Assembly (NCBI GenBank): GCA_021108075.1
Contig: JAIORP010000206.1
Span: 831 to 64,830, forward strand
Direction: 5' to 3'
DNA: 64,000 bases
Source of the DNA: Candidatus Omnitrophota bacterium
GTDB lineage: Bacteria > Omnitrophota > Gorgyraeia > Zapsychrales > Zapsychraceae
Below the pieces are notes generated by a model, which saw only the letters and a program-made list of their open reading frames with translations, was not told where the DNA came from and searched no databases. The translations under genes were made by a program, and so were the position numbers. Shown piece after piece: positions 7,401 to 52,400 of the stretch (positions are counted from its first letter, which is position 1; every line of letters begins with the position of its first letter).

Positions 7401-10400
7401 GAATAACTTTGATGCTTCTCCATGGACAAATGGTTGCGCGGCGCTTAACTCGCCCGCGTATGCCGGCAGACTTCTCTCGATAGCGTGAACCCAACCAAAT
7501 TCTTTGGATACTTTGATTATGTTTTGAATTTCGGCTAATGTCCGTTGCCCTGTTCCTCCCAGCGGCTGTTGATCTTTACTGCCTGCGGTTGTTTGTCTGT
7601 CCGTTCCAGAATTATTCTCAGGATCAACCGTATCTTCTTTATTTCTTCTTGGTCTCAGCAATCTTTTTTGCAACTGCAGTTCCACGGCCTTGCTGATGAC
7701 CCTTAATGTTCGCTCTTTATCGGGACGGCCGGTGCTTTGTGCTATTTCAATAAGCTCCGGCAAGGACTCAGACATCTCAAGCAGAGATTTATGTCCATAC
7801 CATTCCATAAAATTTTCACCATCAGATAAATATCTCAAGAACGCGACCTGCTCTTCACTTAATCCTTCGGTATCAGTCAATGTCAGGTCGCTAATATCAA
7901 CGACTTGCTGCTGAGTCTGACCCTTTGCCATATCCGATTCTAAGAAGCCCCATTGTCTTAACCCGGTCACCTTACCATTTTCATCCCGCTTGAAGAATGA
8001 CACATAAGCGCCCCTATCGCTATAACCTTCTGCTAATTCATAGTCGACATTCATCAATCCGCTTCCGGTTTCCGGTGATAACACAATCCAGGGTAATGCT
8101 GTTTGAGGATCATTGAATTTCTTTCTTTCGTTATGCCCGATGATCATCATAAATGATGCCTGTCTGTTCGAGAATTGGCTTGCCCGGGCACCGATCAGGC
8201 CATTATTAAATCCTCGCGGTCCTCCGTTCTCCATAAATTTAATGACGGAAACCGGCTTAATATGCGCATCGATATCCGAAAACCATTCCATGACGATGGT
8301 GAACGCCTCGCCCAACTCTTCCCACATCTTGTTTCTAAAACTTTCAGAATTCGGCAATGTCTCCATGCCTTCGAAATAACTACGGATATCTTCTTGGATC
8401 ACCTCATACGCCTCGATACCGTGATGCCCCTTGTAATGAACATTTAATGTCCGTGTTTTAAAATCGATCGGTGGAAGCGCGTGTATGTTTAAGTTTCCGA
8501 TAATATCAATGTAGAATATTCTGAAATTCTGCAATTCCCAAAGGGTGCGTTCTTTCACTTCCGGATTATCCATATAATTATCCAATGTGACTTCTTCAAA
8601 ACTTATCGGTTCAATGTCAAGTTCACGCTCAGCATTGATTTCCATAATCCGACGGTTATACGCATTTCTCTTCTCTCTAATGTATTCCAGGGTTTGACTG
8701 AAAATATCCGGAAGCGGCAATTCGACCTGCCGTGTATAACCGGCATCCTCTTTATTGAGTTCGTTCTCCTGGCGAATCTTCGCATTGATTTTCTTAATCC
8801 GCTTCATCTCAGGTTCAATGCTGACACGGTAAGCCGTGATATCAATCAGCTCTAATTCTTCAAGGCCGTGTTGTCTGAAAATAATATTCGCTCTATGAAT
8901 TTCGGCATTTAAATAATGTTCATTAACGCGGTCAAATTCAATGGTTGTCCAGCCGGCATGCTCAATAGCATCCTTTGCAAAATATCCGACACCATGTTTC
9001 GCTTTCATATTAACACCTTTAATAAACTGAACACCTAACACGCCGAGCGCTCTTGCGATGTCATGGTTACCGGCAAATACTTTTGCTTTACCTGTATCAC
9101 GCAACCATTTAACGAGATTGAAAAGTCCCCGAGGATCATTGCCCCGGTCATATTTATCGTTTAATCCAACAAACCTGATATCTTTTGAATGGATATCGAT
9201 ACCCGCCAGATCCAATGCCATCTTTAAATCATCCAGCGTATGTATTCTTCTGTAGATGTCCGGACCCAGTCCGAGTGAATGACCGATTAACGCGGCCGCG
9301 CGCCTGAATCCGCCGTGAAGGTCCTGCAATGTCACAATTTGAGGTATCTCTCCGGATCCGGGCTCTCGCAGTTCCTTATCCATTTCTTCTCTTAACCACA
9401 TTAATTCAATCAAACGTTGTTCGCCCTTATTAATAAAATCAAACAGCATAACATTCACGGCCAACCGCAATAAGCGGTTATCCAGCATGGAATAGTTTGT
9501 TTCATGAAGGGAAAGATTATTCGCTAAAACATGATACGCTTGCGGGGAGATAAAGCTAACCGTACTGTTCGGATCTATTCGGGCGGGATTATCTTCTGCT
9601 ATTAAGGATAGCCATATGGCAACAATGCCGTTATAGACCATTGTAAATTTCTTTGCGTCAAAAAGTTTAAGGACGATAAACATTCTGTATTTTATCGGCA
9701 ACTCGTATAGCCTGTGTTCACTCATCAGCCTCTGGATGAACCGCTCTAAATCAAAAGTATTTTGATTGTTCATGGTGAGGCTGCCACGCTCATCTTTCCA
9801 GTCTTCAAGGACCTTAAGAGCGGTAAAATATCTTTGACGGTATTTTTTGTCATTTACAGCAGAAACTTTCTTCGCGAACCATTTTCTATAAGCCCGGATC
9901 AGCAGGATGCCCAGCGCGCCGGCCGCGAGAATAATCCCGAAGGCCGCTATATTTCCAACAGATACAACCCCGAAACCTGAAAGGTCTGCTTGCTGAACGC
10001 TAACAACTTCACTGGCATATTCGGTCGCGGCAAAAACCGTTTCGCCGAAAAATAGAATGGCGCCAGCTGTCAGCAACGCCATTTTTCGTTTCATATGCTT
10101 TAATGGTCGTCGGTTATTTTTATCGTTTTGATTTACCCAAAACTTGGAAATAATATCACTGACAGGCATCTCAAATCTAACAATATTTGTATCATCAATC
10201 CCGGAGTAGAAGACAACATTATCGCCTTCCAGTCTTACGCCTGTCGCATAATTAATACCTTTGACTTTCTCAAGTGCGCCTTCATGATTTATAAACTTTA
10301 ATTGTGTTGAATCATGAAGAATAACCGGTGTTCCTAGAGGGCTTAAATTATCTTTGCGCAGTAAGACGACTGCCGTGTGGTAATATTTCTCTTCCGGACC

Positions 10401-13400
10401 CATGATAATTGCCATGTGGCTGATCGCAATTTTAAAAATATCTTGAGGTCTTTCTATGATTGTGTTAAATCCGCTATGCGATTTTTTAACAAGCGATATA
10501 CGGGCTTCAACCCGACATGAAATCTTCACGAACTTCTTAATAAATGTGATCGCCCTTGATTGGATAGTTTCGACCATCTTCACAATAGCAGGATGACGAA
10601 TAATGATATGAACAAATGGCAATCTAATGACATCCTGGAAGGAGGACGTGACACGTATTTTCGTCGCATCTTTCACGCTATGTTCGCGCCAATATTCTTC
10701 AGGAGGATAAAGCACATTGTTCATATCATCAAATAGATATATCTGAACAGCTCTATGTCCATCAACAGGTTCTTCCGCGCGGTCAATCAATCCAATTCTT
10801 CCCTCAAGCAATTCTGTTAGATATGTATTCTTAGAGAATTTGTTGGGACGTGCAATCCTGATGTCTTTTGACTTTGGCCGGCCCATTTCATCTATGTAAG
10901 CGAACTCACTGTGCCATGCGCCATCAGCAACCTTCACATAAACAGCACCTAATTGACCGTTAATTTGTGTTATGCGAGGATCCTCCCCATTTTCAATAAG
11001 AAGTTCAGATAACTTGAATTTAATACCTTCTGTATCCTCTGTGTCACGGACTAAAAGAACGATATCGCTGTTGTGTTCCTTGAAAGGATTATCTTCTCTG
11101 GAAATCCTTCGGGCCATTAAGTTGCCGTTTGGTAATACGGCCGGATTCAGGTACCGATCGTTCTTATCACTATCATCAACATAGATCAATTTTCCTATCG
11201 GATAAGAGTCTTGATGTTTCAAAGCGACGATTCTATTCTTGATCCATTTGAATAACAAGGAAACAACCACAAAACCTATGACACCGAGGACAAGCCAACC
11301 CCCTCCGCTGAAAACTGCTACGCCTGTGACATCAAATCCAAAAATAATATAATCAACAAGTGATCCTCCGAAGACCGTCCAGACAACGAACAGACCGGCA
11401 ACAGCGGATGATCGTAACTCTATCGAGGGGGATTTAGAAGCTTTCTTTTGGACAGGATCTGCTGATTTGTCTGTTAACAGCGGTTGCTGATCAACGTGTT
11501 CTTGAAGCGCCTTCCATGAAATCCATCTACCCAGCCTGGTCAACGCGGCAAAAGACTGCGCGTTCATTGTAAGAAATCGGAACGAGTCATGGAAACCATC
11601 TCGTCCAACACCACCGACAGAGAAAAGAAATCGATTTGGCATGATGACCGCGACGCCTTCTGTATCGAAAAGATCTTCCGGACGATAAACACCGACCGCC
11701 TGAATGCCTTCTTCTAATAGATAGTTGAAGATACTGTGCGCCTGGGAAGGACTAACGTGGCTTCCAGACAATAGCGCGACAGAAATGTTTTCAAATCCTA
11801 ATGTTCTTAATCCTGAGACAATATTAACCACTCCGGACGGCATGCGGGAATCAGCCTTATACATCATGCCAATATGAGATATGCCGGCAAATTCACCCTG
11901 CACAGGATGAACCGCTTGAATAATAACCGCGCCGCAGGTGTAACAGCCTTTGGTGAAAATCTTATAATCCTTATGCTGTGCGGAAACCAAAGACATCCTG
12001 TTCGGAGTGACCGTGATCGAGACAACCGCATCGGCATCAACAGGATTGATCTCCGCTCCTTGTTTGCCCAAATCGACATCGATTCTGAAGTTACCCTGCT
12101 TTTGTCCGGACTTGAATAATGCCACTGGATCTGTTTGCGCTTTTTTGGCGCTCCAGGTGATTGAAAACGGATCATGTTCTGCACGGACAACATCCTTTGT
12201 TAATTGATATCCGTTCGCTTTCACGAATGCTTGCTCATTTGCGATAAATAATTCAACCTCACCCGCCATGCGGTGATAACCGGATAACATAAGCTTGTTC
12301 ACGCCCGCCATTCCAGCAGTGAATTCAATCGCGTTATAGTTACTGACGTCATACGTACCGGTCCATGTTCCGATATTCACCAAAGCGATCATTTGCGCTC
12401 TACCGGCATTAATCGCGCTGGTGGTTGAGGCGATAAAATCTTCATCGGTCAGGCTGCCGTTAAAGACGCAATAATCCTGTCCTTCAATAAAACCATTTAA
12501 GCGCATATGCCCACGGGCCTTGAGGAGCTCCGACTGATAAAGTTCGATGAGATCAACATGCCCGGCGCCTAATTTGAAGGCCGCTAAGGAAAGGATGCCG
12601 TCACCGGCGCCCAGGTCAACGATATCCATGTCTTTTAGATTATCATTCATCATATGAATGATTAATGCGGTATTAAAAATTGAGTAACCGGTATAAGCAA
12701 TAGCTGAACGGTCGAGGTCGCGTAACAGGATCACATTTTCGCCCAGGGCTGCTTGAAGCGCAGAAGACAATAATTGATAATATCCCGCGTCGATCATAAA
12801 TAAATAACCGATGCGAATCACCATCATTTTCCGGCCGTAAGCGGTGTTCACAAAGCCCTCTTCACGTTGATAATTTAATTGATCGTTATAAACGTAGTTC
12901 GGCTGGGTTGCGAAGGCCTGACCCCAGGTATCAACCATATCCGTTGGAAGCTCTTTCAACATATCAGCGGCCCATTCTTCACTGCGTTGAACGGCTGGAC
13001 CATATGTTTGCTGATATGCGCTTGTTGGCATTAATGTTTCAGCATACGTGTTGAGCGCAAAGGCGAACAAAAGGCTGTATTCAAACGATGGATTCTTCTC
13101 GATCACATCCCGTTCTGGTAAACCAAGGTCGTAATATTTACCCGCTATTCCGTAACCAACTTGACCTTGCTCATAATCGGATTTGAGTTGCTCTAAATGT
13201 TCAGGATGTGTTTGCGCCATCATGTCGAGATGCTCTTTGGCGCGGGCACTTAAAATCTCATCAGCAAAAGCGGTTTCAACCAGTGTGGCCAACATGTGTC
13301 TGGATTTTGGCATGACTTCATAGCTGAAACGTAATACGTAGTTTCCGTATAACTCATGGACAATACCGGCGACATTTCCCTGGGTCGCGTAAACGATCAA

Positions 13401-16400
13401 TGTCTCACCTTCGATATAAGACGCCGCCTTCATTGGTAATTGTGTTGTCACATCTGTCAATGGTGCGTCTAATAACCGAATGATAATTTGCGTGACCGGC
13501 GGGGCTCTGGAATCAAAGGCCTCGCCGTAAATAGATGCGATACTCTGTTGCACATCGCTTAAGGCCTCGCCGCGTAAGATCGCCTTGATGACAGCGATTT
13601 CTTGCTCGGCCAACGGGAAGGCTTTTCGGAATAAACTGTCTTGTGCCTGTGTTCCGAATATTATTTGATCCGCTATTGTTTGTGTCTCCTGACGGTTTAA
13701 TGTGCGACAGTTGGCTGCCTGGAGCATGGCCTTGAGTTGGGATTGATCCAGGCTGGAGCCGATCGGCTTTTGCGTCCGCACATCATCAGATGGCCTGGCA
13801 GGATCCTGACCGTCTCTGGCGTCTTTTGTTGTTTCGCGACGGACAGGTAATGTGATACAGTAAGCGGTCTTCTTATCATTTTCCTGTGTTCCGGACCGCA
13901 CGCTGATGTGACCTTGATGTTGCTCAACAATATTCTTAATGATAGCCATGCGTAAGCCCCTGACCGGGTCATCGGCTGTTTGATATTCAGGATTAAACAG
14001 GGTGGATTCGGATGCATCACCGACCATTCTTGCCCCCTCAGCCGTAATGATCACATTATCCTGATCTTCATTTAATGTCATCTTAATGCCTGTCGCCTGC
14101 AAGCCTAATAAGACGAACAGCTGCAATAGTCCTTTATAAGAACCGAAGAATTGAATGGCTTTACCAGGATGGGCATCAATGTCATCTTCATCATCCCGTT
14201 CATCCTCTTGGTCTCCCCAATATGCCTGATCGTTATCGACATCCGTAAAATACCCGCCGGTCATGGACAGGATGACGCTTGCCTGATGTTCGATCTCCCG
14301 GATATCGACCGCCATCCAGTCATTAAGTTCAGCCGGTAAATAACCGTCCGCGGGGTGGCTCATCTCTAAGATAGATAACAGCGCTCTGATTTTCTTGAAC
14401 ATCACGAACATCGGGCTATCGATGATAAACGCTTCCAACTGATCCATGTTATAACGTATTTTGTAAATAAGATTTAACATGCTGTCATTGTACTGACAAT
14501 AAGCCTGTCGCACTTTAACCGTATCTTCCATATCAATCGGGCTGGTAAAGACACCACTCAAACTTTCAGATGAACCTGTGTCAACAGGAACGTCTGTTTT
14601 TGATTTCTTGAAGCGTTCAAACACCGTTGTCAGGTCGACGATCAAGCTCACAACCCGGGCCTTTTGACTCTCCCGTACCAATTGATTGTAGGTCGAGCGG
14701 TACATCAAGCTCTCGTTACCATAACCGGCGACATCAAGGAATAAGTCCGTCAACGCGGTCCAAATTCTCGCCATCTGATCCAGGGAGATCAATGCCGGGG
14801 CTTTGGATCGACTTAAACGCTCTGTGATTCGAGCGTTAACCTTCGCCATCATTGATTCATATTCGTCCAAGAAATATTCAGCCCAGATAGCCGTGCGTTT
14901 GAAGTGACCATTCCATTTATAGAATTCAAACCAGCGCGGCAACATTTTCAAATGTTCATACTCGCCTTCATCAAGGGCCTGGATGCTTAATTCACCAGAC
15001 CGCTCCATCACCTTCATCCTGTTCCATGCGTCAATGGCTTTTCCGACGACGATCATTGATTCTTGATATTCCCGGGGTTCATCTGTTCGCATCCGATTAA
15101 GATCTGTAATGTTTTCTGTTTTATCCCATAATTCTAAATAAGCTAAGATATCTTCCTCTTTCCCGCTGGCCGGCATATCGATTTCAGCTTCTTTCGCAAT
15201 AAATTTCGCGTAAGGATAAAGGTCTCTATCCGGCCGCCGCTCTGATTTCGCTGTTGTAAGCGATGTCACCTTATTGATAACTGTCAATATGCCGAGCATG
15301 GAAACAAATATTTGCCGGTCAACCGTGCGTTTCCAGCCGATCGTCTCGAGCGCCTCTTGCACATTCCGGTCAAAGGCTTTGGTTGAAATCTGATCTTCGG
15401 CCAACAGTTTTAACGTATCTTTATACTCGATCAATTTCGTGATCACTTCAATTTCCTGCGCATTATGACCTCTTGACGTCATGAGTTTATCAAGGATGCC
15501 ATTTACGCGTTGAACCTGTTTTTCAGAAACAACGTCAATGCCGGCCAATTCAGCCGTGTTTTGATAAAGGACAACACTGCGCATCAGGTTAAGATGTTCC
15601 AGTGACAACAACTGGGCTAATCGATTAACAACCGTCCAACCAGCTTTCTTGTAGTATCCAAAACTCATATCATCCAACAACTGCAATGCCCAAACAATAA
15701 AGTCAGACCGGCGATATTTCAGATTTAACTCTGGGGCTGCTGAATAGTTGACACTTAAAACCTGGTCGTTTAATGGCTGGCAAACACGAGCAGCATCACT
15801 CAAATCATCCAGGTATTGCTGAACTAAACTGGCATAGTTCGAAACAGGCGCCGCCGGTATTGCCGGGGTTCGTTCAAATAACGGCACCATCATTTGAGTT
15901 AATAACCGGGCTAAGGCGGAGAACGACCAGTGTTCAATTCCCAGTTGATAATTGTGTTCAACCATGTCGCTGATGGCCTGCGGATCATTCAATAAATGAA
16001 CAACTTCTGTCGCGGTCTGAACCAGACGCTCACGAACTCTCTGACCGCCTTTCGCGAGTTCTGCCGGACTGATATCACACTCAATACATTCCGGTCCTTT
16101 CGGCATGATGTCCGTGATATAAATCCAGTACTTATAAACGAGGATAGGAACTTTATGATACACCGCTTCCAACCAGGCATTGCCCCAACCTTCCCAGGAG
16201 CTGGTATACAGGACCATGCCGCGGTTACCGATCTTTGCAGCTTCATAGGCCTCGGCCAATGTGAATTCATAACTGTCATCTTCACCGATGATGCCCTTGC
16301 CATCGTTGTGTTCACCCGCGTCCCAGATCTTTAATCCTTTAGCACGATACTTCGCCTTTAAGTCTTCCCAGTATTTCGCATCTTCATCCGAGGCCCCGCC

Positions 16401-19400
16401 GTGGGTGATAACGGCATACGGTTGTTTGCCTTCCTTCTGCATCATCTGCGCGACAATCAATTCAAGCTCAAATGAAAGTTCGAGATATTTTCTGGCGACC
16501 GGGCGGACAGGCCGTAATAACATATAACCTTTGCCTGACCCGATACCCAATTCTTTCTCGATTCGTTTGCGCAACTTCCTGGCCCCATACAGGCTGACCA
16601 TATGTGGTTTGGTCAGATCTTCTGCATTAACGACCTTTTCAAAGAACCGGATCCAGGACTTCGGCATCCAGGTTGTTTCCGGTGCCTGATCAAAATCCAT
16701 CACATTCGGTAAGACCGTTGATTCAACACCATAAAGACGTCGTAATTTTTCATACTGAACGATATTGATAACACCCGTGGCTAACAGCTTATGGTTCAGC
16801 TTAATAAATCGTTCTAAATACTTAATCAAGTCGATCCGCCCGAGTTCTTTAGCGAATTCTCTTTCCATTCGGGAAATGTCATGTTTCCAGTCGATCGTCT
16901 TAATGTTCAGTTCTTCGATCACTTCAACCACAGCCAGGCCGAATGGTATGTTGCGGGCGTAAGCCAGAATGTTTTGTGTGACGATGAAATCGATGTTATT
17001 CGCTAAGATGAAGGCTTTCAGATCGGCCTTGATCTTATCTTTATAGAACTCGATCAGGAGTTTGTCTGTTTCTGAAATTTCTTCATTGTTAAAAACGCGG
17101 TCCATTATGGAGACAAGTTGGTTATTGTCCATGTCACCTTTCACGCGTTTAAAGTGGGCTAACGGGAATGTGTGGACTTGTTCTGCCGTCATACCAACAC
17201 CCGGAGTCGATTCGCCAGAATAATAGAAACTAAACGGATCACGGTCTTTCATGGTCGGGTAAATTTGACGTAAGAGACCGACAAAAATCTTACGAACCTT
17301 GTCATTCTCTAAGGTCACCCCGTCTGTTCCGCTTAAACGGTAAGAAATGTAAAGGATATTTCTCATCTGATGTTGTTTGAATAGTTTTAATAACGCGCTG
17401 TAACCGGTTTCAACACCATCGATCACCTGGCGTAATAACTCAGGGATATGCCCGTTGCGGCTTATTTCCTCGCGGACAGTATCATTTTCATATGGCTGGA
17501 ACTGCATGACAACACCGGAAATGACTTGCGCCATCTTGCGGGACCATTCTAAGAGCGACTCTAATTCTTTAATTCTATAAATCAGATGCGCGCTGTTGCG
17601 AATTTGATCGAATTTTTTTCGATCCCAATCTTCCGCACGCATCAAGTGCGGTAATGTTCGACCATGGATCAATTGAGCCCTTAATTCATACAGTTCACGA
17701 AGACCTTCTTCATATCGTGAACCGTGTCTGTACAGCATTCCCTTCCATTTCTTCAAGTTCGCTTTTTCATTTTTGAATGTTAAGAAGCCGGCAACCGCGT
17801 CAAATTCATTTGGAACCGGTTGGTCACCTAAAATTTCTCTTAAGCGGCTGACAGCGATCTTTGGCTCTTCAAAGATGTTTGTCGTCACACGGATATCAAC
17901 GTATGTCAGGAGTCCCAGTAAGCGGAAGAATCGGTTACGCAATAAGAAATACGCCCTCGCATCTTCATAAGAGGTCAGCATCGCCGCGGCTCTTCTTTCA
18001 TATTGTTGTAAAAATTCAGAGAAACTGATCCTGTTTTCCAGGACATCTCTGGCATACGGCAGCATGACCAGCAAGGCCTGCACGAGCACGATATCAAACG
18101 GCATATACGTAACCGTTGGATTTAAGCGTTGCAAGACCCCTTGAATAACGGGTCGGCTGTTCAATGCTGATAACCGGTCGGACTGATCGTTAAACATGTG
18201 ATACAGGTTAAATGCTGAACGAATGATATATTCACTCTTTGGTAAAATCGTTTTAGCATAAACTTGCATGAACTCAAATCCCTGCTTGCGGCTCGCACCA
18301 TTTCCGTTTCCATTGACGGATTTAAATTTTTCCGCGCCGTTATTAAGCAAGGAAGTAAACAGACCGTTGCCCGCGGCTAATACCTGATAATCGGTATAAA
18401 GCCGGCCTTCCATCAAGGTCGTAATCAGCGTTTTATCCCCATCGTCTGCAACCTGGTCTAATATATCGACGAGCCACACTAAGAATTCATTGTCGATTTC
18501 TAAGCGGGAACCAAAATTGACAAATCGCATACCGCGGATATTCAAGTCTTGAACAACGACAACTTCCGGCTGAATAAATTGATTAACGTACGGCGTGATA
18601 TAATTCTTCAAGACCCTGGTGAGGCGCATGTCGTCTAATGGCTGTTGTGTTTCCCTGTTCGTCAGATGAGCATCAGAGGATAAGAGATCCTTCGCATCAA
18701 AACTCATCCTGGCGTAAGCCATGCGGTTGGATACCGATAAGTCTGTCATCTGTTGACAGTCCCGGGCCATCCCTTTACGTAATGTCTGCCATAAAACTGT
18801 TCGGAATTGTTGTTTAACGGCCTGCCATTGAGCGCTCGAGAGGAATTGTCTGACCAAACGTTGGATGCCCCATACTACCGCAACGATTAGGACGATGGAA
18901 ATGATCCCGGCGACAACCGGGTTATCGGCTAATACTGTCAGATAGGCCATGGCAATCGTTACGGATCCCGCTTCAAATAATGTTGTACCTGTCTCGTCAG
19001 AGCCTTGCGATGCATCCTGTTTCAGAACTTGCCTGACCATTAAATCTGATGTCGCTTTTAATTTTGCTTCACTGTCTCCCATCGTGCTTAAAAAACGGAC
19101 ATCGGTATGTTCACCGGATTGATCTTTTAATGTGTCCGTTAAGTAACCTGACATGACCGACCATACCGCTTTCATCACCTGATCTGTCTGCTCACGTTTT
19201 GCCGTTACCATTACTTTCCAATCAAAGGCTCTGGCAACGTAGACGCCGCCTTTGTCCACATCATAATCGTAGTATGGAGCAAACTCCGCCATTTGACGCA
19301 ATATGTTGCTGCCAGCCATTTCATTCAGGGCAACATCAATTCTGAAGAATTCCTTATTATTTTTATCGATCGCGGCTAAAAATATTTGGATATCCAATTT

Positions 19401-43400: not shown

Positions 43401-46400
43401 GAAACAGATATCAACATAAGCTGCTAACGGGTTATAAATGTCTTTAGCCGTAAACAATTTATTCTTTCTCTGGGCTTGTTGAACAAACCAGTTCGTGACT
43501 GTTTTGCCATATCCGCTGAATTTGTACCCTTCAAAAATCTTGATGTCTGAACGGATAATCTCTCTTTCGTTTTCAGCGTAATTAACAAACCCGATTTTCT
43601 TATGTCCACGGTAAATGTCGAAGTAATCCGGATATTTTGCCTCATTGCTCCATTTCAAGGTCAACACTTCCTTTGTCGTTACGTGTGGAATGTGGGCCGT
43701 GCCGATTGATTCAGGTGTCTCGATCTTAGAGGATTGTTCTTTTGCCGGGGCTTCGGACACGGTCTTTTCATCTTGCGCGCGGGCCGTGACTTGTTCCATC
43801 AAAACTTGTTCTTCGCTTAATACCGGATAAGCGGCGTGAGTCGCTTCGTGTTCTTCCACAAAATTCCAAATTTCATGGGCTTTTTCTTCTGAATAACTCA
43901 TTTCCATCAAGGCCTTAACAGCTGCGGCGCGGGAGACATCAGCCTGATCGTCGACACTCAAGCTTTCATCACGTGCGACGACGAAGACGATTTGTTTGGT
44001 GACTTCATCATAATAAGCGACGCGATCAACCTTGAAGTGCGTTGCTAATTTTCGAATCGCTTCAGAATAAGCTCTTAACATCTTAGCGCCTCGCGCGTTA
44101 ACAGCTTGAATGTCAAAAGCGACCCTATCCATAATTGATGGCGTGATATGTTTGCGTCCGCGGTTGCCTTTGCGGCCTTTTTCCCTGGCTATCTTCTTGG
44201 CGCTCTTACGTTTTATTCTTGATGCTTTTACTTGCGCGCTTTCGATTGTCGCTTCAATGGCTTTGTTGGCCAGCGCCGGCGGCACGCTGAGGACTAATTT
44301 TACTGTCATTAATCTGTTCCATGATTCAACGTCACCCTGACTGATATTCAAGCTTACGACCTCTACCTTAGAATGTGCTTTTCTGATAGTGGCAAGAAAA
44401 TCAGCTATTGTTTGCGAGCGTTCACTCATTTGACGGATCACTGTGTAAATCTTTTCTTTGCGTTTAGATTTCTGAATTTCCCTTTTCCTCGCTTCCGGCG
44501 CTATCTTATCTGGAATATTTTGAATAATCGCAACCATCGCATGGATATCTTCCCGTGTCACCCCGCTCAACGTAGCGGTTAAACAGTTAATCATTTCAAC
44601 ATATCGTCCTCTCGCATCGAGTAAATTCGCTTGTGCCTGGTGGACCGTTGCCCCAGACTGGGCCATGATATTGAATACAAGGCTTAATAAATCTGGTCGA
44701 CTCTTATTTGACGAAACCGTTACCGTCCAGTTATCTGACTGAGCGATCTTCTTCACTTCTACTTTTAATGTCTTTGACATCGCGTCTAACAACATGTCGA
44801 GTGTGACCTGTCCTTTACCAAGGGCAACCACAAAATTCGTCATTTTGTCTCTCAGGTGCTTAATCAAGGCTGGTTTCAACTCATAAGATGTTTGGATAAA
44901 CTGTTCAATAAAAATACGGTAATGCATCTCGCCTAATACCAATAACGCGGCTTTCTGGTAATATTCACGCAAATGCGGTTCTTCTTTGGTTAATAATTTA
45001 AGCAGGTCATTATAATCTTTCATTCCTGGAATATTCGCCGACTTTGTTCGGGCGGCTTTACCCATTTCTTTAATAGCGCGTAACATATTGACTTCAATAT
45101 AATTTTCTGTCAGGCCATCGGTAATAAATGTTTCTAAAAATTCTTTCAACTGTTTAAAGCCAAATTCAAAGGCGTGAAAATCAATCTCTTCTGTTGAAAT
45201 AATATCTAATCCAACGGCCAGGTATAATTCATTAAGATCTTTGAGTCCTAAGCGCCTTCGAAGGTATCGTAAGAAGACTTCCTGAACAGCAATGTTTGTA
45301 ATGTTCTGATCCAGCTTCCTTTTGCCTTTCACGGTAACCAATCCGGGATTAGCGTTGAATTGACCGATGAGCCTCGTACGGATGTATTCGGAACCTTTGA
45401 CGATGGCAGCATATTGATGCCGTGTCATCCCGGTATATTCATCGGCACGGAAATAAACAACCATTCCATCCCTGACAAAATCATTCATTCCCGCTCTGCG
45501 CCCCACTTTGACATCCACATGATGTTTTGTCACTGTGAGGCGGGTTCTGTGCGCGACAGGGTATTGCGCAATTTTATTCATCCTCCAGATATCGACTTCT
45601 AACAGACCCGCAATGTCTATGACCCGTGTCTTCTTATCCAACGCGACTGGAATGAATTCACAATGACCTTCTTTGCGGTCCACGACCACTAAGACCGATG
45701 TCTGGTCTTTAAACGCACGGTTCGCAGCATTAAAGTCTTCAACAAATTTTTCCGTGAGCGGCAACTCAACAATATCGCTGAAATCCTGGTCTTCGAGTTC
45801 TTTATGTTCTTTGGTCGCCGCGTAGAGCCAGTGTTGATATTCCCTTGTCAGGTAATCATCATAATTTTTCTGATCCATAATGATAATCTCAACAAAATAT
45901 TTTCTGGATATATCCTCCAGGAAAACATGGTAGCCTTCATATTTACCCCATAAACGTTTGAGCGGCGTCTTGTATTTCATAAACTGACCTAAGTATTTGA
46001 GGTGAGCAAAACGTTGCTGGATATTTTGCATCCAAGACAAGACGGAACCAATGTTCGTTCCGGTTGGGACCACAATCATCATACCCAATTTATCCCGTGT
46101 TGATCTGATGGCTTCCGCGGCGCTGTATCCGCCTCTTTCAAACTTGTCTTCGATGCGTTGTTGCTTGTTGTAAAGGGAATAGCTGCTCTTCACGCGGGCC
46201 CGCATAAACATATGCAAATAGATATCATCTTTCAGTGCTTTTCTGATGCTTGATTTTTCTAATGATTCCAAGATATAGTCTTCAACCTTGATGCGGGTAT
46301 CTGCCAGGTGGCCCTCTGCCTCAGCGCGTGTGGCAAAGTGGATGGACTTCATTAACTTTCTTTCAAACTTTTCAACTTCTTTTGCCGTACGTTTCGCCTT

Positions 46401-49400
46401 GAATGTGCTTTCACGGATTTTACCGGCGATATCCCGGCGGCCAAGCCATTCAGCGATGAGCGCGTCTAAATGATTAGACTTGGTTGTCAAATATTCGATA
46501 TGTCGCAATTGCTCTTCATTCTTGTATTTAATGTTGGCTAAACCATCTAATAACTCGATCAAACGGGCAAAACGGAGCATCATGACTTCAGGGAAAGCCG
46601 CTGTCTTGATAAAAAATTTGATATAATTTTCAACCGTTTGTTTACCCTTGATACTTTTTCCTGATCGTTCCGGAATATCTGTAATCTTTCCTTTTCCCCG
46701 GTAATATTCAACCAGGTTCCAGAACTTCGGACCAAATTTGCTGGAGATTCTTTGTTGCTGAGTGAACGGTAACTTTTTGGCTCTTAATATCTGTGACCAG
46801 GCCTGATCAAACTTGCTTTCCGCAGAACCTTCGATCTCTAAAAATTCGATGAAGAAGTCAATATAAGATTCGAGAGTTTCAATGTCATAAGCATAACGGG
46901 CATCTGTGGTCGGTAAATAAGGCATATGCTTCATGAGATAATAACGCGCGACAAATGTCCAGACCTCCGGTCCAAAACGTTGCTCAATAAATTCCTGGTC
47001 ATTATCAAGATTACCGTAAAGTGTGAGCATGAAAGCCCAACCCGCGTCAACAGTGATTTGTTTGGCCCCAAAGCCGCGTAAAAGTTCTGTTAATTTTTCT
47101 GCTATATTGAAATGCTTATCTGATAGTTGACCCTCACAGCGCAATTCATCTCCGATGCGACGGCCTTTCTCTGTGTGCATGCCTAAAAGCATTTCAAAGG
47201 TATTCTTCATCGTGATACGATATTTTTCTTGATTGGCTAAGATTTCCATTGTGGCCTGGAAGACATCTTCATTCTTTGGATTCATCAGATAATCAACGGT
47301 TGCCGGGTAAGCCGCCTGGTCATCCATGCCTAAGACGTGCAGTTTTTCATGGCCTTCAATAACGCCTTTCATGAATAAGAGGATTTGACGTTTATCACGT
47401 TCCGTGAAATACGCGATCTGATCGATCATAAAGAGATGAATGTAAAGAATATTTTCAGATTTGTTATAGGCCGCGACCGTTCCCTTTGTATCGGCCTGGT
47501 CAGATGTGATGACAACCGGCGGTGCTTGTGCTAACCAAGGAGAGGCTTCAAAGAGATGATGAATCGCGCGCAATTGAACGCGGCTTAATTCGCCCCTGGG
47601 CATACGGACTTTTAAAATTTGCTTGCCTTTAAGTACGACTTGACCCCGTAAGGTCCCTTTATTGTATCGTCCGGTCATGTAAATCTCATGTGACAGGTCA
47701 TACGGAGCAGGATAGGTGTGGCGGCCGTCGTTACGCGCGGCTATGCGGCGTCTAATACCAAATCCATTAATAAATTGTTCTATTTTAATTCTGATATTCT
47801 CGCTAAATCGTCGAGAAAAGCAGAATTGATTTTGGTCATTATTTAATGGAATTGGTATAATCATCCGGACAATGCCACCGGTGACAAGCGTAACCATGGA
47901 CCCGAAGAACTGACGACGAGTCAGTCCTGCTGCGACTTGTCTTACTGCTGCCGGTTTTTCTTCTATATTTCCTTCGAGTCCGGCTCTGATCTCATTGAAC
48001 CATACGCTGCGTGGAACATTCAAGGCCCAGGCGATAGCTTTCATTTGATCCTGTTGATTGAGTTCTAAGGCGATGTTGGCGAGCACTTCCCCTGAGTCGT
48101 AATCCTCCGGCATACCGACTGTTTGGCGGGCTGTCCGACCGCTGATCCAGAGGCTTACAATCTTTTCCTGGAATTGACGTTCTGTGATTTTTCCACTCGT
48201 TAAGTCTTCCACTAAACGTGCGCCTTCCCAGGCAAGATATGTATCATCACGCATGAACCAGATGCTTTCGAAAATGTTGCCCATGACATTGAACGGATCA
48301 TATAAGCCTAAGATATGCGCGACATGATGACCTAATTCATGGCTCATATGAATATCCATCACAGCCGGCATGGCGATCGTTCTGTCAACTGACGAGTATG
48401 ATTGTTGACCTCTTCTGATTCTCAACGGCACTAACTTTGCTATAACTTCTTGAGCGATTTCTGTGTTTTGGTCAAACAACACGGTAACCACCTCTTCCAA
48501 TTTAGCCCTGACTTCGTCGACTGGAAGACCATTCAATACGGCCACCTTACTTAAGAGGCTTGCTGTTGTTTCCGGTGCTGTCGTATGAGTCATTGCGCGG
48601 ACCATATTGACGGCCCCAACAACAGCTGTCAGGACTAAACCTAAACCGGCGATAGCCAGGATGGCGACAACGATTGGCGCGATATTCACGCCCATCACGT
48701 TCGCAACGGCGATTAAGGCAAAACCAGAAGCAAAGGCGGATGACTGCAGCTTTGTTCCCCCGCGTTGTTCTTCTTCTTTCAATTTCTTGATTTGTCGCTT
48801 AACTTCTTCAATGTATTCTTCACGGGCTTCACGGTCACGGATGTAGTGGCCAGCACGTGGCTCTAATTCACGACGGACCTGGTATCCGGATTCTTGCAAT
48901 AAAGATCTGATTCCGTGATGATCCGCGCCGAAGAATATGATAACGCGTGTTTCGTTTTCTTTTCCTGTCTTTTCAGCATCCAGGAATAACCGGTCTAGGA
49001 CTGAGGTCAGCCATTTAGCTGATCGGACAGATCCTCTTCCATGGATACCGTAAACAATCGAGATCGTTTGATTAACAACGCGGCCTTGAGCTTTTTCAGC
49101 GTCAATTAAGGACAGCACATCTTGAGCCGCCTTAGCATCACGCATGTCAATGGAACGGTCCAAACGATCCGCTTTTTGATGCGCTGTTTCGTCACGCTCT
49201 GGCAAGTCTAAAATAATTTGTTCAAGCGGTTGTTGTTCGAGCTGCAGTTCTAAGTCATAGCCTTTCGATAGATCCATCATTTTGTTGGCTAAGAACTGTT
49301 CAAAGATTTCTGTAAAGGTGCTTGGTTGTCCGATCTTGCCTTCTGCCCAGGTGCGTTGAACAGCTTGCCAATCCGGCATACGGTTTGACATCTCGCGCAT

Positions 49401-52400
49401 GTATGGGATAAAGGCTTCTTGTTCGAATCGAGCGCGATAAGCGGCATCCTTAACGATGCGGTTAAATTTCCAACCTTTGAACATGCGTTCAAATTTCGCT
49501 CTAATCCGTTGATATGGTTCGTTACCGGCGACGATCGAGCTTTCAATAAAGAAGATCACCTTGCCCTTTGGTGCCTGTTCGCGTAGAGGTTGTGATTGGG
49601 CTCGTGAAGCGACCCATTTAACGAACGCATGAGGTGTTGATGTGATCATGACTGCCGTGACAAGCGCGAACATATTCAAGAAACGGCGACGTGGTTGTAC
49701 GGCTTGAGCTTCCGTTTGTTCCCGTCTTGCAGTTGTGGGTGAGCGTATGAAACGTGCGAGGTATCGACGGATACCGATCACAACAGCGAGCAGGCCACCA
49801 ACGGCGAATAATGTTGCCGCAATGGCTGTAAGTGCTGGATTAGCCGCTAACACACCGGCGATATATTCCGCTCCAAATACCCGGTACAATAATCCAGCGG
49901 TTACCAGCGTCACAATTGGATGCGTATAGAGTGTTGTGCTTCTTGAAGCAGGGCCTCGGTCATTGCGTGTCATTTCAATCACATCTGTTTCCGTCATATC
50001 CATCAGACGTGCGGCTGCTTGAGCATCAGATTTTTCTTCGGCCATTAATTGTGTGTATGCTTCTACCATCATGTGTTCAACGGTCGCTTCGTCTTTTTGA
50101 GCTCTTAAGCCTTTGAAAATCTTCTCAGCGATGACATCCGCTCTGAAGAGATCTTTAACGGTCTTCGCATTGACAACCAGGGTGTCGATATCTTTTGTCA
50201 CCCTGCTCATCATAGCGATGGAAAGTTCGATAACCACGCTATCAAAATCAGACGCGACGTCTTCCAGTGTGACATCTCTTAATTCTGGAAGAACCGCATA
50301 AATATCTGCTGTGATGTCTTGTTTTGTAATGATGCCGTATTTCAATCCGAAGATAATGTCTTCCACCGCGCCTTCAACGCTTTCAGCGGCTACGGCAATC
50401 TTGCCGGCTTTTGACAGGGCTTGAACGCATTGCGGTTTATTGATATCGAAATTCATGATGTCTGCCGCATCATTTTGATCAACACTGATACCGATGATGT
50501 TCCGTAAGATATTAACAATTTCCGCTTTAGCGTTAAACGCAATCTTAGCAAGTTGTTGACCGACATAACCGCGTAATGTGACGTGTCTGAATGGAACAGC
50601 TGAAAGATCATGAGTCAGGGCGATGAAAGCGGCATGCGTTGCTGACACATCGTATTGATCAGCAATGATCTTCGCTACCATGGCGGTGCGGATATCGTGG
50701 CCTGAGACATTGATGTCTGCCATATCTTTTCTTTCTAAATCATGTCCGATTCCTGTATGGCCGATGATATCGCTTAAACGGTTAAAGCGGGCGTGTTTGA
50801 TAACAGTGACGATAGCTTTAACGAAGCGGTCGACCCTTGTGAACGAGGCCAAAAGTTTGGCTGCCGTTGGGCTGAATTCAGATTCAATTGTTTGGGCGTC
50901 TGTTCTGAACGCGGCTAATCTTGTTCGTGTTGTTGGAATATTGTTCAGGACTTCGGCTAATCTTGCGTTCATCTTTTCGATCACTTGAGCGTCTTCTGAT
51001 TCCATTCCTCTTTGCGCCGCGGCAGTCGCCATCAGCATCCAGAGGAAAATGTAGTGGCTATAAACAGCCTGTTTCTCTGCCGCGCTGAATGCCTGGCCTG
51101 CTAAACGATATCCTTCAAGAAGATCATTAACGCGTTGGGCGATATCAGCCCCGAAGTAATTCCCTTCCCCGACACGGCCTGTTCCGGAAACAGCTGAGAA
51201 AACATCTTCAAAGCGATAGGTATAAAGGGTGTTATCCCAATCAAAGGCCGCGAGGATATTTCCCTGTTCGTCAAACTTCAAGTTACCGAAGTTCATATCT
51301 CTTGCGATATGCGCTTTCCTTAATATCTTAAGTTGTTGTCTGAACGCGTGAAGTTCAGCTATCGCGCTGTCAATGATGTCCTGATATTTCGCGTAAACAT
51401 CCCGGGTTGCTACGTGTTTCCAATTAAAACTTAAGACAGAATATAATTTTTCATCGATATCAAAATCGATCGGATCGACCGGGCTCTTCCCTTTATATTC
51501 AGAATATTGTGCTTCGAATCGATCGGACAACGCGTTAAGTTCTCCTAAGAATCGACCAAGGTTCCGGACCAGCACCGGAGTGGCGTCTTTTGTTGAAACA
51601 TCCATTCCTTCAACCCATTGTTCAACCATATAGAAACGTGTTTCGCCATTAGCGTTTCTCACAGCGGTATAATAGTTATCAATAATATCTTGATCTGTGC
51701 CGAATTTAGCAATGATCGGCGCTGGAACACCATTTTCCTTCAAGAATTTCACAAAAGCGACAATGTAACGCGCTTTGCCTTCTGTTTGAACCTTACGGTA
51801 ACTTAATTGCTTAATGCCGAAGATTCCTTTGTCTGTGCGGATCATTGGAACCTTCCATCCTGTGGTCACGGCATTGTAGCCGGTTGCCACGTATTCGACG
51901 CTTTCGATGGTGCCGAGATTGAACTCCTGGGCGATACGATCAATCAAGGCTGTGGTCATGTCATCGGCTTGAGCCTTATCTGTTGCGGCGGTCAATTGGA
52001 TCGCTTCGGTGATCTTCCACTCTTTGCCCTTGTCTGTTGTGGCGGAAATCTTATCGGCGGTAACGCTTAATGCCGGGCGTTGGGCGTCGTAAGCGGCCAG
52101 GCGCTGGATCAGTGTTTCCAGTTGCGCTGGTGTAGCGTCATGGATGTAGGCCACAGTAATATGTTTAACCGGATTGATTTCCGCGGCTGGATTGTTTTCT
52201 AATGCCAATGCCCAGGCTTGATCGCGGATCCAGTCATAGTGATGATCAGCATTGGATAGTTCGACCACAACAGCCATGCCTTCGCCTAAGTGGGCCTTTT
52301 CAACCTTGAACGTTATTGCGCCTGTTCCCTGGACTTTTTGAGCTAATGCTTGAGCGTATGCTTTGACCTGTGACCAGCCAGCGACGATGTTCTTTCCACC

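Follow-up and report, generated by a model that had tools for sequence, protein, structure and literature searches.

The window, a 64-kb stretch of Omnitrophota DNA, is spanned by one minus-strand reading frame (offset 2) with 0 stops; the other five frames contain 938–1,696. The lack of stops over 64 kb implies selection on the product. All of the motifs listed by the first-pass annotation lie where it had placed them, and all are in this single frame. The features are listed below, with residues (aa) numbered along the frame.

3..63998, minus strand: single uninterrupted reading frame, open at both window ends (21,332 codons; piece of an Omnitrophota giant gene)
2760..3233, minus strand: recurrent HExxxH module (aa 20256-20413; ILYHELVSH; alignments)
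7644..9983, minus strand: conserved, divergent metallophosphoesterase module of ~780 aa (aa 18006-18785; ligand motifs, ortholog alignment, hhalign via family A6)
12249..12701, minus strand: class-I SAM methyltransferase region (aa ~17100-17250; Pfam PrmA, NCBIfam, PDB)
13824..14093, minus strand: GHKL (histidine-kinase-type) ATPase domain, missed in the first pass (aa 16636-16725; NCBIfam ZraS)
20448..21155, minus strand: WaaP/Kdo-type minimal kinase domain (aa 14282-14517; Pfam Kdo and RIO1, BLASTP WaaP)
34740..40844, minus strand: carbohydrate-enzyme block with alpha-amylase (aa 7719-7833), GT4 (aa 8343-8727), and TreT_GT1 plus GT1 (aa 9341-9753; Pfam)
47907..48617, minus strand: HELGH-containing segment (aa 5128-5364; motif at window 48327-48341, TM scan)
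50529..50702, minus strand: weak HD-like phosphohydrolase motif region (aa 4433-4490; Pfam HD, below threshold)
51168..51788, minus strand: APH-fold phosphotransferase domain (aa 4071-4277; Pfam APH PF01636)

All 11 giant-ORF relatives in the genome collection are Omnitrophota MAGs (11/11), and each related locus is also one open frame end to end. The window ORF therefore belongs to the multi-enzyme giant proteins of "Archaeovorin" type, which have been described before (West-Roberts et al. 2023, 10.1101/2023.11.21.568195; 10.64898/2026.06.07.730766, 2026). The published content of Omnitrophota giant proteins comprises sugar metabolism, kinase/phosphotransferase, methyltransferase, HATPase_c, and FBPase-like functions (10.1101/2023.11.21.568195; 10.64898/2026.06.07.730766). 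Archaeovorin-type or "multi-enzyme metabolic cluster" proteins and the window share a single ORF of giant size, relatives within Omnitrophota, numerous TM helices, GT5/GT1/GT4, glycoside-hydrolase, methyltransferase, HATPase_c, and sugar-phosphate enzymes, and internal repeats. In contrast to those proteins, NUDIX, C39/S8 peptidase, and SecA-like domains are absent from the window, in which the ORF is incomplete. APH, Kdo/WaaP, and the phosphoesterase family described below are not named in the main texts of 10.1101/2023.11.21.568195 and 10.64898/2026.06.07.730766. A TM scan placed many helices along the protein, which is predicted to exceed 21,332 aa and to be polytopic in the membrane. The carbohydrate block scored 68 bits for Alpha-amylase, 117.8 bits for Glycos_transf_1, and 104.3 bits for TreT_GT1, and a GT5 module lies within the same polypeptide. 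No P-loop NTPase motif had been noticed earlier, and our scan of the whole frame for a strict Walker A (G....GK[ST]) likewise found none.

The phosphoesterase module carries DLHG at window 9323 (aa 18226), DKYDRG at 9158 (aa 18281), and GNHD at 9071 (aa 18310). Its layout runs from a TM helix (aa 18016-18034) through D18226-x-H18228-G, D18281-x-x-D-R-G, and G-N18311-H-D to a helical insert of ~190 aa, H18506..P..D, and G-H18622-N-E. Identity to the 11 Omnitrophota loci was 41–73%, and the ligand motifs were invariant in all 12 sequences. Neither the window copy nor the 11 orthologous copies matched any Pfam model even at E ≤ 10; the module matched no PDB sequence or profile, and NCBIfam returned only a chance-level match (Pnkp, 11.8 bits). 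The module aligned with A6, a Metallophos-positive family (hhalign probability 99.9, E 2.2e-34), and A6 in turn matched PDB entries 4j6o (E 2.2e-5), ApaH (E 0.003), and PP2A (~0.08). By sequence, the module belongs to the calcineurin-like superfamily, which is reached solely through intermediates (transitive homology). The first-pass call of a "textbook" calcineurin-like phosphoesterase thus stood for superfamily and motifs, while "textbook" did not, as direct Pfam, NCBIfam, and PDB matches were absent.

Family A6 also matched class-III fructose-1,6-bisphosphatase (FBPase; probability 94.5, E 8.3e-8, 174 columns); compared directly by profile, the Omnitrophota module and class-III FBPase showed no significant similarity (E 0.13). 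The module and class-III FBPase (FBPase_2, Bacillus Fbp type) share the ligand order DLHG, D-x-Y-DRG, GNHD, GN-L-x-H-x-x-P-x-D, GH, D-G/K-G, in both of them GNHD is followed by a large helical insert, and the phosphoesterase family occurs in sugar-phosphate gene contexts. Unlike class-III FBPase, neither the window module nor its 11 orthologous copies match FBPase_2 in Pfam, and the N-terminal helical region and preceding TM helix are the module's own. Motifs I and II are separated by an insert of ~55 aa in the module and of about 140 aa in Bacillus Fbp. An AF2 model of the module reached pLDDT 80 and pTM 0.82. Its best local Foldseek matches were PPP-type phosphoesterases, none at E ≤ 1e-3, and the top Foldseek/PDB relatives included PP2A, PP5, and a Rhizobiales-like phosphatase. 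Protein phosphatases (PP2A, lambda phosphatase) are among the nearest solved relatives of the family, though the similarity is weak. The module shares DxHG, GDxxDRG, and GNH[DE] with PPP-like enzymes (lambda phosphatase, ApaH, the bacterial Pnkp phosphatase domain, PP1/PP2A). However, this likeness is confined to ~50–150 residues around motifs II–III and is followed by the helical insertion, the module is ~780 aa long compared with roughly 220–330 aa for the solved chains, and its gene contexts are metabolic.

Free-standing phosphoesterase homologs directly adjoin TAL_FSA (transaldolase) genes on four contigs in two different arrangements. Such homologs also adjoin a ROK gene and lie near pyruvate kinase, and one remote family member is fused to a class-II FBP aldolase (85.8 bits). 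In other Omnitrophota giant genes, the phosphoesterase has mainly sugar-phosphate and nucleotide enzymes for neighbors: UDPGP, PRK, guanylate kinase, Cof-type HAD, and DUF89 phosphatase domains lie beside it, as does a polysaccharide deacetylase; none of these related genes showed a protein-kinase domain in the module's vicinity.

Both regions earlier described as protein-kinase-like, at 20.7 and 51.3 kb, gave Pfam matches above cut-off (20.4–21.2 kb and 51.2–51.8 kb, respectively). The catalytic Lys and Asp are intact in both, but neither region reached the Pfam Pkinase model (15.9 bits vs a cut-off of 31.7), so the kinase fold was upheld and the protein-kinase family was not. The first domain is flanked on both sides by copies of a ~150-aa repeat and matched Kdo PF06293 (30.6 bits, cut-off 21.3) and RIO1 (26.6 bits, cut-off 22) at aa 14350-14463. 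A BLASTP alignment to the heptose kinase WaaP of E. coli K-12 covers 155 aa at 28% identity (E 9e-5). Both proteins have the beta3 Lys, the catalytic Asp, and the metal-binding Asp at matching positions (K14338, H14426-G-D14428-x4-H14433, and D14446 in IIDFS), and the shared HxDxxxxH loop includes the unusual WaaP-specific catalytic-loop His. The IID metal-binding Asp and PRxRW are also common to the WaaP/Kdo family (PF06293; LPS core heptose kinase). In contrast to that family, the window domain is embedded amid repeat modules of a giant protein and falls under the KdkA and Bud32 equivalog cut-offs, with NCBIfam scores far below both. Its catalytic loop and DFG region also align with CaMKI (E 0.0045). 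Some RIO, Bud32, and WaaP family members have been reported to phosphorylate proteins. AF2 modeling of the kinase-like domain from a single sequence failed (pLDDT 40).

The second domain matched APH PF01636 at 43.7 bits (E 3.8e-11, cut-off 23.2) over profile positions 32–216 of 239. Its candidate catalytic residues, read off the sequence, are K4063, D4234-x4-N4239, and D4253/D4255 (FDWD). Most of the profile is covered, and the D-x4-N catalytic loop and downstream Asp are those of APH/choline-kinase-type phosphotransferases; unlike these, the domain has no NCBIfam subfamily and no relative among PDB sequences. Nothing pointed to maltokinase or any particular substrate. Characterized APH-family members are mostly small-molecule kinases.

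The motif I noted earlier as PrmA-like at 12.6 kb (DLGAGDG at window 12617; D17128-L-G-A-G-D-G) was upheld at superfamily level as a class-I SAM methyltransferase motif, with a post-I acidic residue at E17152. Pfam PrmA was at threshold, scoring 22.2 bits in a 350-aa segment (cut-off 22) and 20.1 bits in a 1000-aa tile, and NCBIfam prmA scored ~24 bits. The closest solved relatives are protein methyltransferases (PRMT1/Hmt1, E 0.002; PrmA 3grz, E 0.004), over ~55 aa covering motif I and post-I only. The GHKL domain matched NCBIfam ZraS (33 bits, E 2.7e-8) and many further histidine-kinase models, with Pfam HATPase_c at 21.5 bits, under its 26.4 cut-off. GHKL domains are typical of signaling. 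The HD-like region scored 20.6 bits with Pfam HD (cut-off 22, E 5.8e-4) and 19.6 bits with a dGTPase-type NCBIfam model.

The HELGH motif lies at window 48341 (aa 5220), in a segment bordered on one side by a strong TM helix (aa 5109-5127) and on the other by a hydrophobic, Tat-like TRRQFFGSMVTLV stretch. HELGH is present as described, but its metallopeptidase identity was not borne out, the segment matching no Pfam or NCBIfam model and no homolog. At superfamily level, four of the five first-pass domain calls were right (APH-fold, Kdo/RIO-type, SAM methyltransferase motif, calcineurin-like), with HELGH the exception. The HExxH pattern is enriched ~6-fold in the frame (4 sites vs 0.63 expected; 0.5% of shuffles reach 4). 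The separate HExxxH module is conserved in many Omnitrophota giant genes, often immediately preceding the phosphoesterase module, with H..FF, Y-H-E, H, E, and D-T invariant in the alignments; it matched neither Pfam nor the PDB, and one copy in a relative has lost the His/Glu/His residues. Homolog searches retrieved nothing for either kinase-like domain, for the methyltransferase region, or for the HELGH region.

From these motifs, homologies, and gene neighborhoods we infer the substrates and activities of the modules and their possible co-operation. At a probability of about 0.6, we favor small-molecule, sugar-phosphate, or glycan enzymes in a membrane-tethered multi-enzyme assembly over a phospho-signaling switch. 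The kinase and PP-family phosphatase in cis had been taken to suggest self-contained phospho-regulation of the megaprotein. Intact catalytic residues in the kinase-fold domains, the PPP-type signatures (DxHG, DxxDRG, GNHD) with PP2A and PP5 among the Foldseek/PDB relatives, and a GHKL ATPase and PrmA/PRMT-like methyltransferase in the same protein are consistent with such a circuit. We nevertheless consider it very unlikely, given the sub-threshold Pkinase score, the sugar kinase WaaP as best specific match, the FBPase III likeness of a phosphoesterase family tied to transaldolase, FBP aldolase, and ROK genes, the absence of protein-kinase domains from the module's surroundings in other giant genes, and the 4,000–14,000 residues and many TM helices lying between the domains.

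In line with the alternative of host or prey targets raised in the first pass, the modules might instead be exported or surface-displayed effectors acting on prey or host glycans, lipids, or proteins in predation or attachment. E. coli WaaP-type kinases and GT4 enzymes work on envelope glycolipids, APH-family enzymes modify exogenous small molecules, and the protein has many TM helices. Omnitrophota giant proteins have moreover been linked to predation; they associate with membranes and have stretches predicted to be extracellular (10.1101/2023.11.21.568195). We regard this role as unlikely, however, as ATP-, SAM-, and NDP-sugar-dependent enzymes require cytoplasmic cofactors, free-standing phosphoesterase homologs occupy ordinary central-metabolism neighborhoods of non-predatory lineages, and these segments have no demonstrated secretion signal. 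A reading of some motifs as degenerate remnants or chance matches within structural filler is similarly doubtful; HELGH would be the foremost candidate, and the methyltransferase and kinase-like regions might be further ones. The unsupported HELGH (no family, homolog, or structure), the ~55-residue methyltransferase likeness, the lack of orthologs showing conservation of these regions, the kinase-like model at pLDDT 40, and the degenerate HExxxH copy all fit such decay, whereas the retained kinase residues, Pfam scores above curated cut-offs, HExxH enrichment, and a stop-free frame implying selection speak against it.

In the favored metabolic assembly, separate catalytic modules would be strung between the TM helices and repeats of one giant membrane protein. 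These would consist of two kinase-like modules, one APH-fold and the other WaaP/Kdo-type and sugar-kinase-like, along with a GHKL ATPase, a SAM methyltransferase resembling PrmA/PRMT, and a highly divergent metallophosphoesterase, the last proposed as kin of class-III FBPase. Their predicted substrates are most likely small molecules such as sugars, sugar phosphates, and glycan or glycolipid intermediates. Acting beside the protein's own alpha-amylase, GT4, trehalose-synthase, and GT5 modules, they may together form a membrane-tethered assembly for metabolism and glycan processing.

The window is read through by one minus-strand frame (offset 2) of 21,332 codons with 0 stops across all 64,000 bases; the other five frames contain 938–1,696 stops. 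This frame exceeds the window at both ends, for which reason an ORF listing came back empty; it gives a protein of at least 21,332 aa, and the residue numbers used here are its codons. When the most family-specific segment of the window protein was searched against one genome for each GTDB species, 11 relative loci were returned, all from Candidatus Omnitrophota MAGs at 46–79% identity and each a single open frame throughout. Because the window is one open frame and its relatives are Omnitrophota-only and likewise open, we assign it to an Omnitrophota giant gene. Omnitrophota giant proteins are among the largest polypeptides known. The class has been named Archaeovorins (10.1101/2023.11.21.568195) and is also termed "multi-enzyme metabolic cluster" giant proteins (10.64898/2026.06.07.730766).

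The window protein shares with the Archaeovorin type an ORF of at least 7,000 aa, an Omnitrophota host, GT, GH, methyltransferase and HATPase_c content, and many TM helices. For the Pfam scan the entire protein was cut into tiles of 1000 aa, each overlapping the next by 200 aa, and tighter segments were re-run at E ≤ 10. Carbohydrate enzymes were represented by alpha-amylase (68 bits), GT4 (118 bits), TreT_GT1 (104 bits) and GT5 (22 bits). NUDIX, C39/S8 peptidase and SecA-like domains were not found in the Pfam tiles of the window, past both ends of which the ORF extends. A crude hydropathy scan gave ~30 candidate transmembrane helices scattered over the polypeptide, and is too crude for topology or for the side of the membrane to be inferred from it. 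The motifs listed in the first-pass annotation all lie in the minus-strand frame where that annotation put them (DLHG at 9323, DKYDRG at 9158, GNHD at 9071, DLGAGDG at 12617 and HELGH at 48341). It had noticed no P-loop NTPase motif in the stretches that it examined, and a strict Walker A motif is absent from the entire frame. The domain matches discussed here are as follows.

Domain matches in the giant frame (aa, frame codons; nt, window positions)
aa 14375–14463, minus strand: Kdo/WaaP (PF06293), Pfam 30.6 bits, cut-off 21.3
aa 14350–14448, minus strand: RIO1, Pfam 26.6 bits, cut-off 22
Kdo region at 20.7 kb, minus strand: Pkinase (PF00069), Pfam 15.9 bits, below the cut-off of 31.7
aa 4071–4277, minus strand: APH (PF01636), Pfam 43.7 bits, cut-off 23.2, profile positions 32–216 of 239
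aa 17112–17168, minus strand: PrmA, Pfam 22.2 bits in a 350-aa segment (20.1 in a 1000-aa tile), cut-off 22
aa 16636–16725, nt 13824–14093, minus strand: GHKL (histidine-kinase-type) ATPase, NCBIfam ZraS 33 bits, E 2.7e-8; Pfam HATPase_c below cut-off
aa 20256–20413, nt 2760–3233, minus strand: HExxxH module of ~130 aa, found in many Omnitrophota giant genes
nt 45864–46196, minus strand: RelA_SpoT signal, Pfam 19.5 bits, below cut-off
nt 50529–50702, minus strand: HD signal, Pfam 20.6 bits, below cut-off
nt 53034–53246, minus strand: DUF218 signal, Pfam 21.7–25.5 bits, below cut-off
nt 52041–52163, minus strand: LigT phosphoesterase signal, Pfam 20.8 bits, below cut-off

The GHKL ATPase was absent from the first-pass list, and no HisKA domain was detected beside it. 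The weak, sub-threshold Pfam signals in the window protein are HD, RelA/SpoT, DUF218, LigT and HATPase_c.

The phosphoesterase is part of a conserved unit of ~780 aa (aa 18006–18785) that is 41–73% identical among Omnitrophota loci, with flanks that vary by genome. Its metal-ligand motifs occur in the order D18226xH18228G, (N)D18281xxDRG, GN18311HD, H18506 and GH18622, and in an alignment of 12 Omnitrophota sequences (A2) the elements D-x-H-G, D-x-x-D-R-G, N-H-[DE], H-x-H..P-x-D and G-H-N-E are invariant or nearly so. The segment gave no Pfam match at E ≤ 10, including to Metallophos and FBPase_2, no PDB sequence match, and nothing usable from NCBIfam. None of the 12 members matched any relevant Pfam family, including FBPase_2 and, at E ≤ 10, Metallophos, and a profile built from them found nothing significant in the PDB. 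For these reasons, the description of this region as a "textbook" calcineurin-like phosphoesterase was wrong in its adjective.

The superfamily assignment itself stood, through intermediates. An initial protein-database search found one relative in 5.8 billion clusters (54% identity, all three motifs kept). When 1.84 billion cluster representatives were searched exhaustively with phmmer, the module proved to have 110 relatives. Remote relatives at 25–32% identity carry Pfam Metallophos (8 of 10 in one set, 5 above cut-off; 5 of 8 in another), and these Metallophos-bearing proteins have the same motif spacing as the Omnitrophota module. Ten remote relatives trimmed to the module (A6) aligned with A2 in hhalign at a probability of 99.9% (E 2.2e-34, 439 columns); judged by these profiles, the two sets are one family. 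Against the PDB, A6 matched the metallophosphoesterase 4j6o (E 2.2e-5), ApaH (E 0.003) and, over ~50 residues only, PP2A (E ~0.08). The module is a genuine, though very divergent, representative of the calcineurin-like superfamily (PF00149 clan), and its family escapes current Pfam and NCBIfam models. It differs from the PPP-family Ser/Thr protein phosphatases in having no significant catalytic-domain-wide similarity to them, given the lack of a PDB match for A2 and the value of ~0.08 between A6 and PP2A.

Class-III FBPase is closest in architecture to the module's family. Six genuine class-III FBPases (A4), fetched from plasmids with a bait sequence, aligned with A6 at a probability of 94.5% (E 8.3e-8) over 174 columns of the C-terminal half only. 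The direct hhalign comparison of A2 with A4 was not significant (E 0.13, probability 0.46). Because only the link through A6 was significant, membership of the module in class-III FBPase (PF06874, FBPase_2) was rejected. Together with the sugar-phosphate gene context, the A6-mediated homology suggests a sister family of class-III FBPase. Separately, the closest metagenome fragment, a 2.2-kb JGI contig (L001), shifts frame within its phosphoesterase module at L001:1672–1720, where two gene calls overlap and blastx carries on in a different frame. This change is likely a sequencing or assembly frameshift, or the mark of a pseudogene.

Outside the giant genes, homologues of the module occur as free-standing proteins of 798–1,368 aa with no Pfam domain on record. 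On four contigs, such a homologue adjoins a transaldolase/F6P-aldolase (TAL_FSA) gene, in two arrangements: a co-directional, downstream one found in a Deltaproteobacteria MAG, and a divergent, upstream one shared by a Chitinivibrionales contig and two JGI contigs. A ROK-family gene adjoins the homologue on one contig, pyruvate kinase lies three genes away on one contig, and the neighbourhood was uninformative on two further contigs. In one remote member of the family there is a fusion to a class-II fructose-bisphosphate aldolase domain (85.8 bits). Where the module lies in two further giant genes of Omnitrophota, it is surrounded by UDP-glucose pyrophosphorylase, PRK/uridine kinase, guanylate kinase, HD, Cof-type HAD hydrolase, ARMT1/DUF89 damage-control phosphatase and polysaccharide deacetylase domains. 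West-Roberts et al. (10.1101/2023.11.21.568195) list FBPase-, aldolase-, TPI-, PGI- and PGM-like domains for the Archaeovorins. Gene context and remote homology lead us to propose that the module would act as a sugar-(bis)phosphate phosphatase. The TAL_FSA genes beside the homologues (L015:12710–13351, L024:6284–7525, L027:588–1832 and L028:1167–2408) are of two sizes, encoding 213 aa and ~413 aa; the larger products, about twice the smaller, may carry an extra domain.

The first-pass annotation had also described two protein-kinase-like regions; their catalytic loops are H14426-G-D-V-K-V-E-H at ~20.7 kb and R-D4234-M-N-F-G-N at ~51.3 kb. Both matched kinase-fold families above cut-off (Kdo/WaaP and RIO1 for the former, APH for the latter). 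The protein-kinase family itself remained below its cut-off at 20.7 kb and had no Pfam match at 51.3 kb. The 20.7-kb domain spans 236 aa (aa 14282–14517, limits set by flanking repeat copies), and is thereby close in length to two E. coli proteins, WaaP with 265 aa and WaaY with 232 aa. Over 155 residues it shares 28% identity with WaaP of E. coli K-12, which is the heptose(I) kinase of the LPS core (pairwise E 9e-5), and its K14338 (the beta3 Lys), catalytic D14428, metal-binding D14446 and PRxRW are in register with WaaP. K14338, H14426-G-D14428, H14433 and D14446 align with both WaaP and WaaY, so that a check of the kinase motif residues bore out the Lys, HxD and metal Asp of this region. 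The catalytic loop of the window domain (HGDVKVEH) ends in a His, H14433, that it shares with WaaP (HRDCYICH); in CaMKI and other canonical protein kinases this position is Asn. NCBIfam matches of this domain were to the KdkA and Bud32 models, far under the cut-offs (26.6 vs 142 bits and 31 vs 125 bits), giving no equivalog-level KdkA/Bud32 identity. A single-sequence AF2 model of this domain came out at a pLDDT of only 39.9, a failed prediction.

The 51.3-kb region holds an APH-fold domain of nearly full length, in which the D4234-x4-N4239 loop is intact and FD4253WD4255 follows downstream. It matched no NCBIfam subfamily and no PDB sequence. A maltokinase identity, an idea taken from the nearby trehalose and alpha-glucan enzymes, was dropped for want of NCBIfam support. 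The APH+HD, HELGH, Kdo-like and methyltransferase segments, joined end to end as one query, returned no homologue at E ≤ 1e-3, and metagenome scans with the APH and Kdo-like segments returned no homologue of either. By their family matches, the two kinase-like domains are of small-molecule or sugar-kinase types.

In the methyltransferase region, described earlier as having a PrmA-like motif I, both the motif (D17128-L-G-A-G-D-G) and an acidic residue, E17152, that aligns with the post-I acidic residue of PRMT1 are present. The PrmA score is at the cut-off and covers only profile positions 150–207 of 296, and NCBIfam prmA gave 24 vs 183 bits. Alignments with PRMT1/Hmt1 (E 0.002) and PrmA (E 0.004) extend over only ~55 residues. 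This region is probably a class-I SAM methyltransferase.

HELGH, at aa 5220, lies between a strong TM helix (aa 5109–5127) and a hydrophobic segment starting with a Tat-like TRRQFF. The motif behind the earlier suggestion of a metallopeptidase-like site is present; the segment matches no family in Pfam or NCBIfam, and the metzincin pattern HExxHxxGxxH is absent. A search for third zinc ligands downstream gave only candidate Glu residues, in NIFES and in WEGARLVEDL. A twin-arginine-like "TRRQFFGSMVTLVTGG" motif lies mid-polypeptide at aa 5359–5385 (window 47844–47924, minus strand), ~140 aa past HELGH, and could be what is left of a signal peptide from a gene fused into the frame, or else no more than the flank of a TM segment. 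The window protein contains four HExxH sites against 0.63 expected (~6-fold), a number reached by 0.5% of shuffles. The three others, at window 47351, 43850 and 42722 on the minus strand (aa 5550, 6717 and 7093), share the context [VA]A.Y[DN]...I...(25–40 aa)...HExxH, and two of them lie within an internal repeat (6622–6747 / 7001–7127). The HExxxH module has the invariants D, A, H..FF, Q, Y-H-E-x-x-x-H, E and D-T. It was also found in the relative loci L002, L003, L005, L008, L009 (two copies), L010 (two copies) and L012, and is directly N-terminal of the phosphoesterase module in several relatives. In one copy, L010b, the His/Glu/His residues are gone. The module's profile matched no Pfam family and no PDB sequence.

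The order of modules around the phosphoesterase varies between genomes, which indicates modular shuffling. A TM helix (aa 18016–18034, window 9897–9953, minus strand) stands at this point immediately before the module in the window, L002 and L003, and an HExxxH module takes its place in L005, L009, L010 and L012 (A2 columns 1–60). A ~150-aa repeat without a Pfam match occurs three times in the window, at 23046–23546, 21156–21656 and 20013–20447 on the minus strand (aa 13485–13651, 14115–14281 and 14518–14662), with 80% and ~50% identity between copies. Two copies flank the WaaP-like kinase domain, and the repeat is also found upstream of the phosphoesterase modules in L001, L006 and L010. Self-comparison further revealed a tandem ~507-aa unit at aa 9907–11077 (window 30768–34280, minus strand), in which aa 10001–10400 and 10508–10907 are 98.5% identical; a third, partial copy (aa 10919–11077) is more diverged at 44–48%. 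The 98.5% identity points to a very recent duplication inside the giant ORF, or possibly to an assembly collapse or expansion.

The domain calls of the first-pass annotation were largely right at the superfamily level: HMM searches placed APH, Kdo and RIO1 above their Pfam cut-offs and PrmA at 22.2 vs 22 bits, with no direct Metallophos match. Its proposal that a kinase and a PP-family phosphatase in cis give the protein a self-contained phospho-regulation is not supported. The kinase-like domains resemble small-molecule or sugar kinases, the phosphoesterase family keeps company with sugar-phosphate genes, and the domains are separated by thousands of residues and many TM helices. Such cis-regulation is unlikely. 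No protein-kinase domain was found around the phosphoesterase module in the two other Omnitrophota giant genes. The modules could also be prey-directed effectors, and some motifs may be partially degenerate.

Our best reading, to which we give a probability of about 0.6, is that these are independent catalytic modules of one membrane-tethered multi-enzyme protein that would carry out sugar-phosphate and glycan chemistry. This reading is consistent with what is published for the Omnitrophota giant-protein class. Two bolder readings, which we consider improbable, would be that the ~780-aa module defines an unrecognised sugar-bisphosphate phosphatase family, sister of class-III FBPase, whose members stand alone beside transaldolase in several phyla and are built into the giant proteins of Omnitrophota; and that the recurrent HExxH and HExxxH modules beside the enzyme modules are minimal zincin-like autoprocessing sites cutting the giant polyprotein into single enzymes.

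Herein, our analysis speaks against a built-in kinase/phosphatase switch in the giant protein. Its modules look like enzymes of sugars, sugar phosphates and glycans, in support of the view that the protein is a multi-enzyme assembly tethered to the membrane. The HExx(x)H modules that recur in it are a second, more speculative point of novelty. The phosphoesterase family, missed by Pfam and NCBIfam and linked to FBPase-III and transaldolase, is the one element with some novelty value. Profile comparison, a gene fusion and gene neighbourhood tie this family to the chemistry of FBP and transaldolase, and it is a candidate source of a missing FBPase/SBPase activity in several uncultured lineages.
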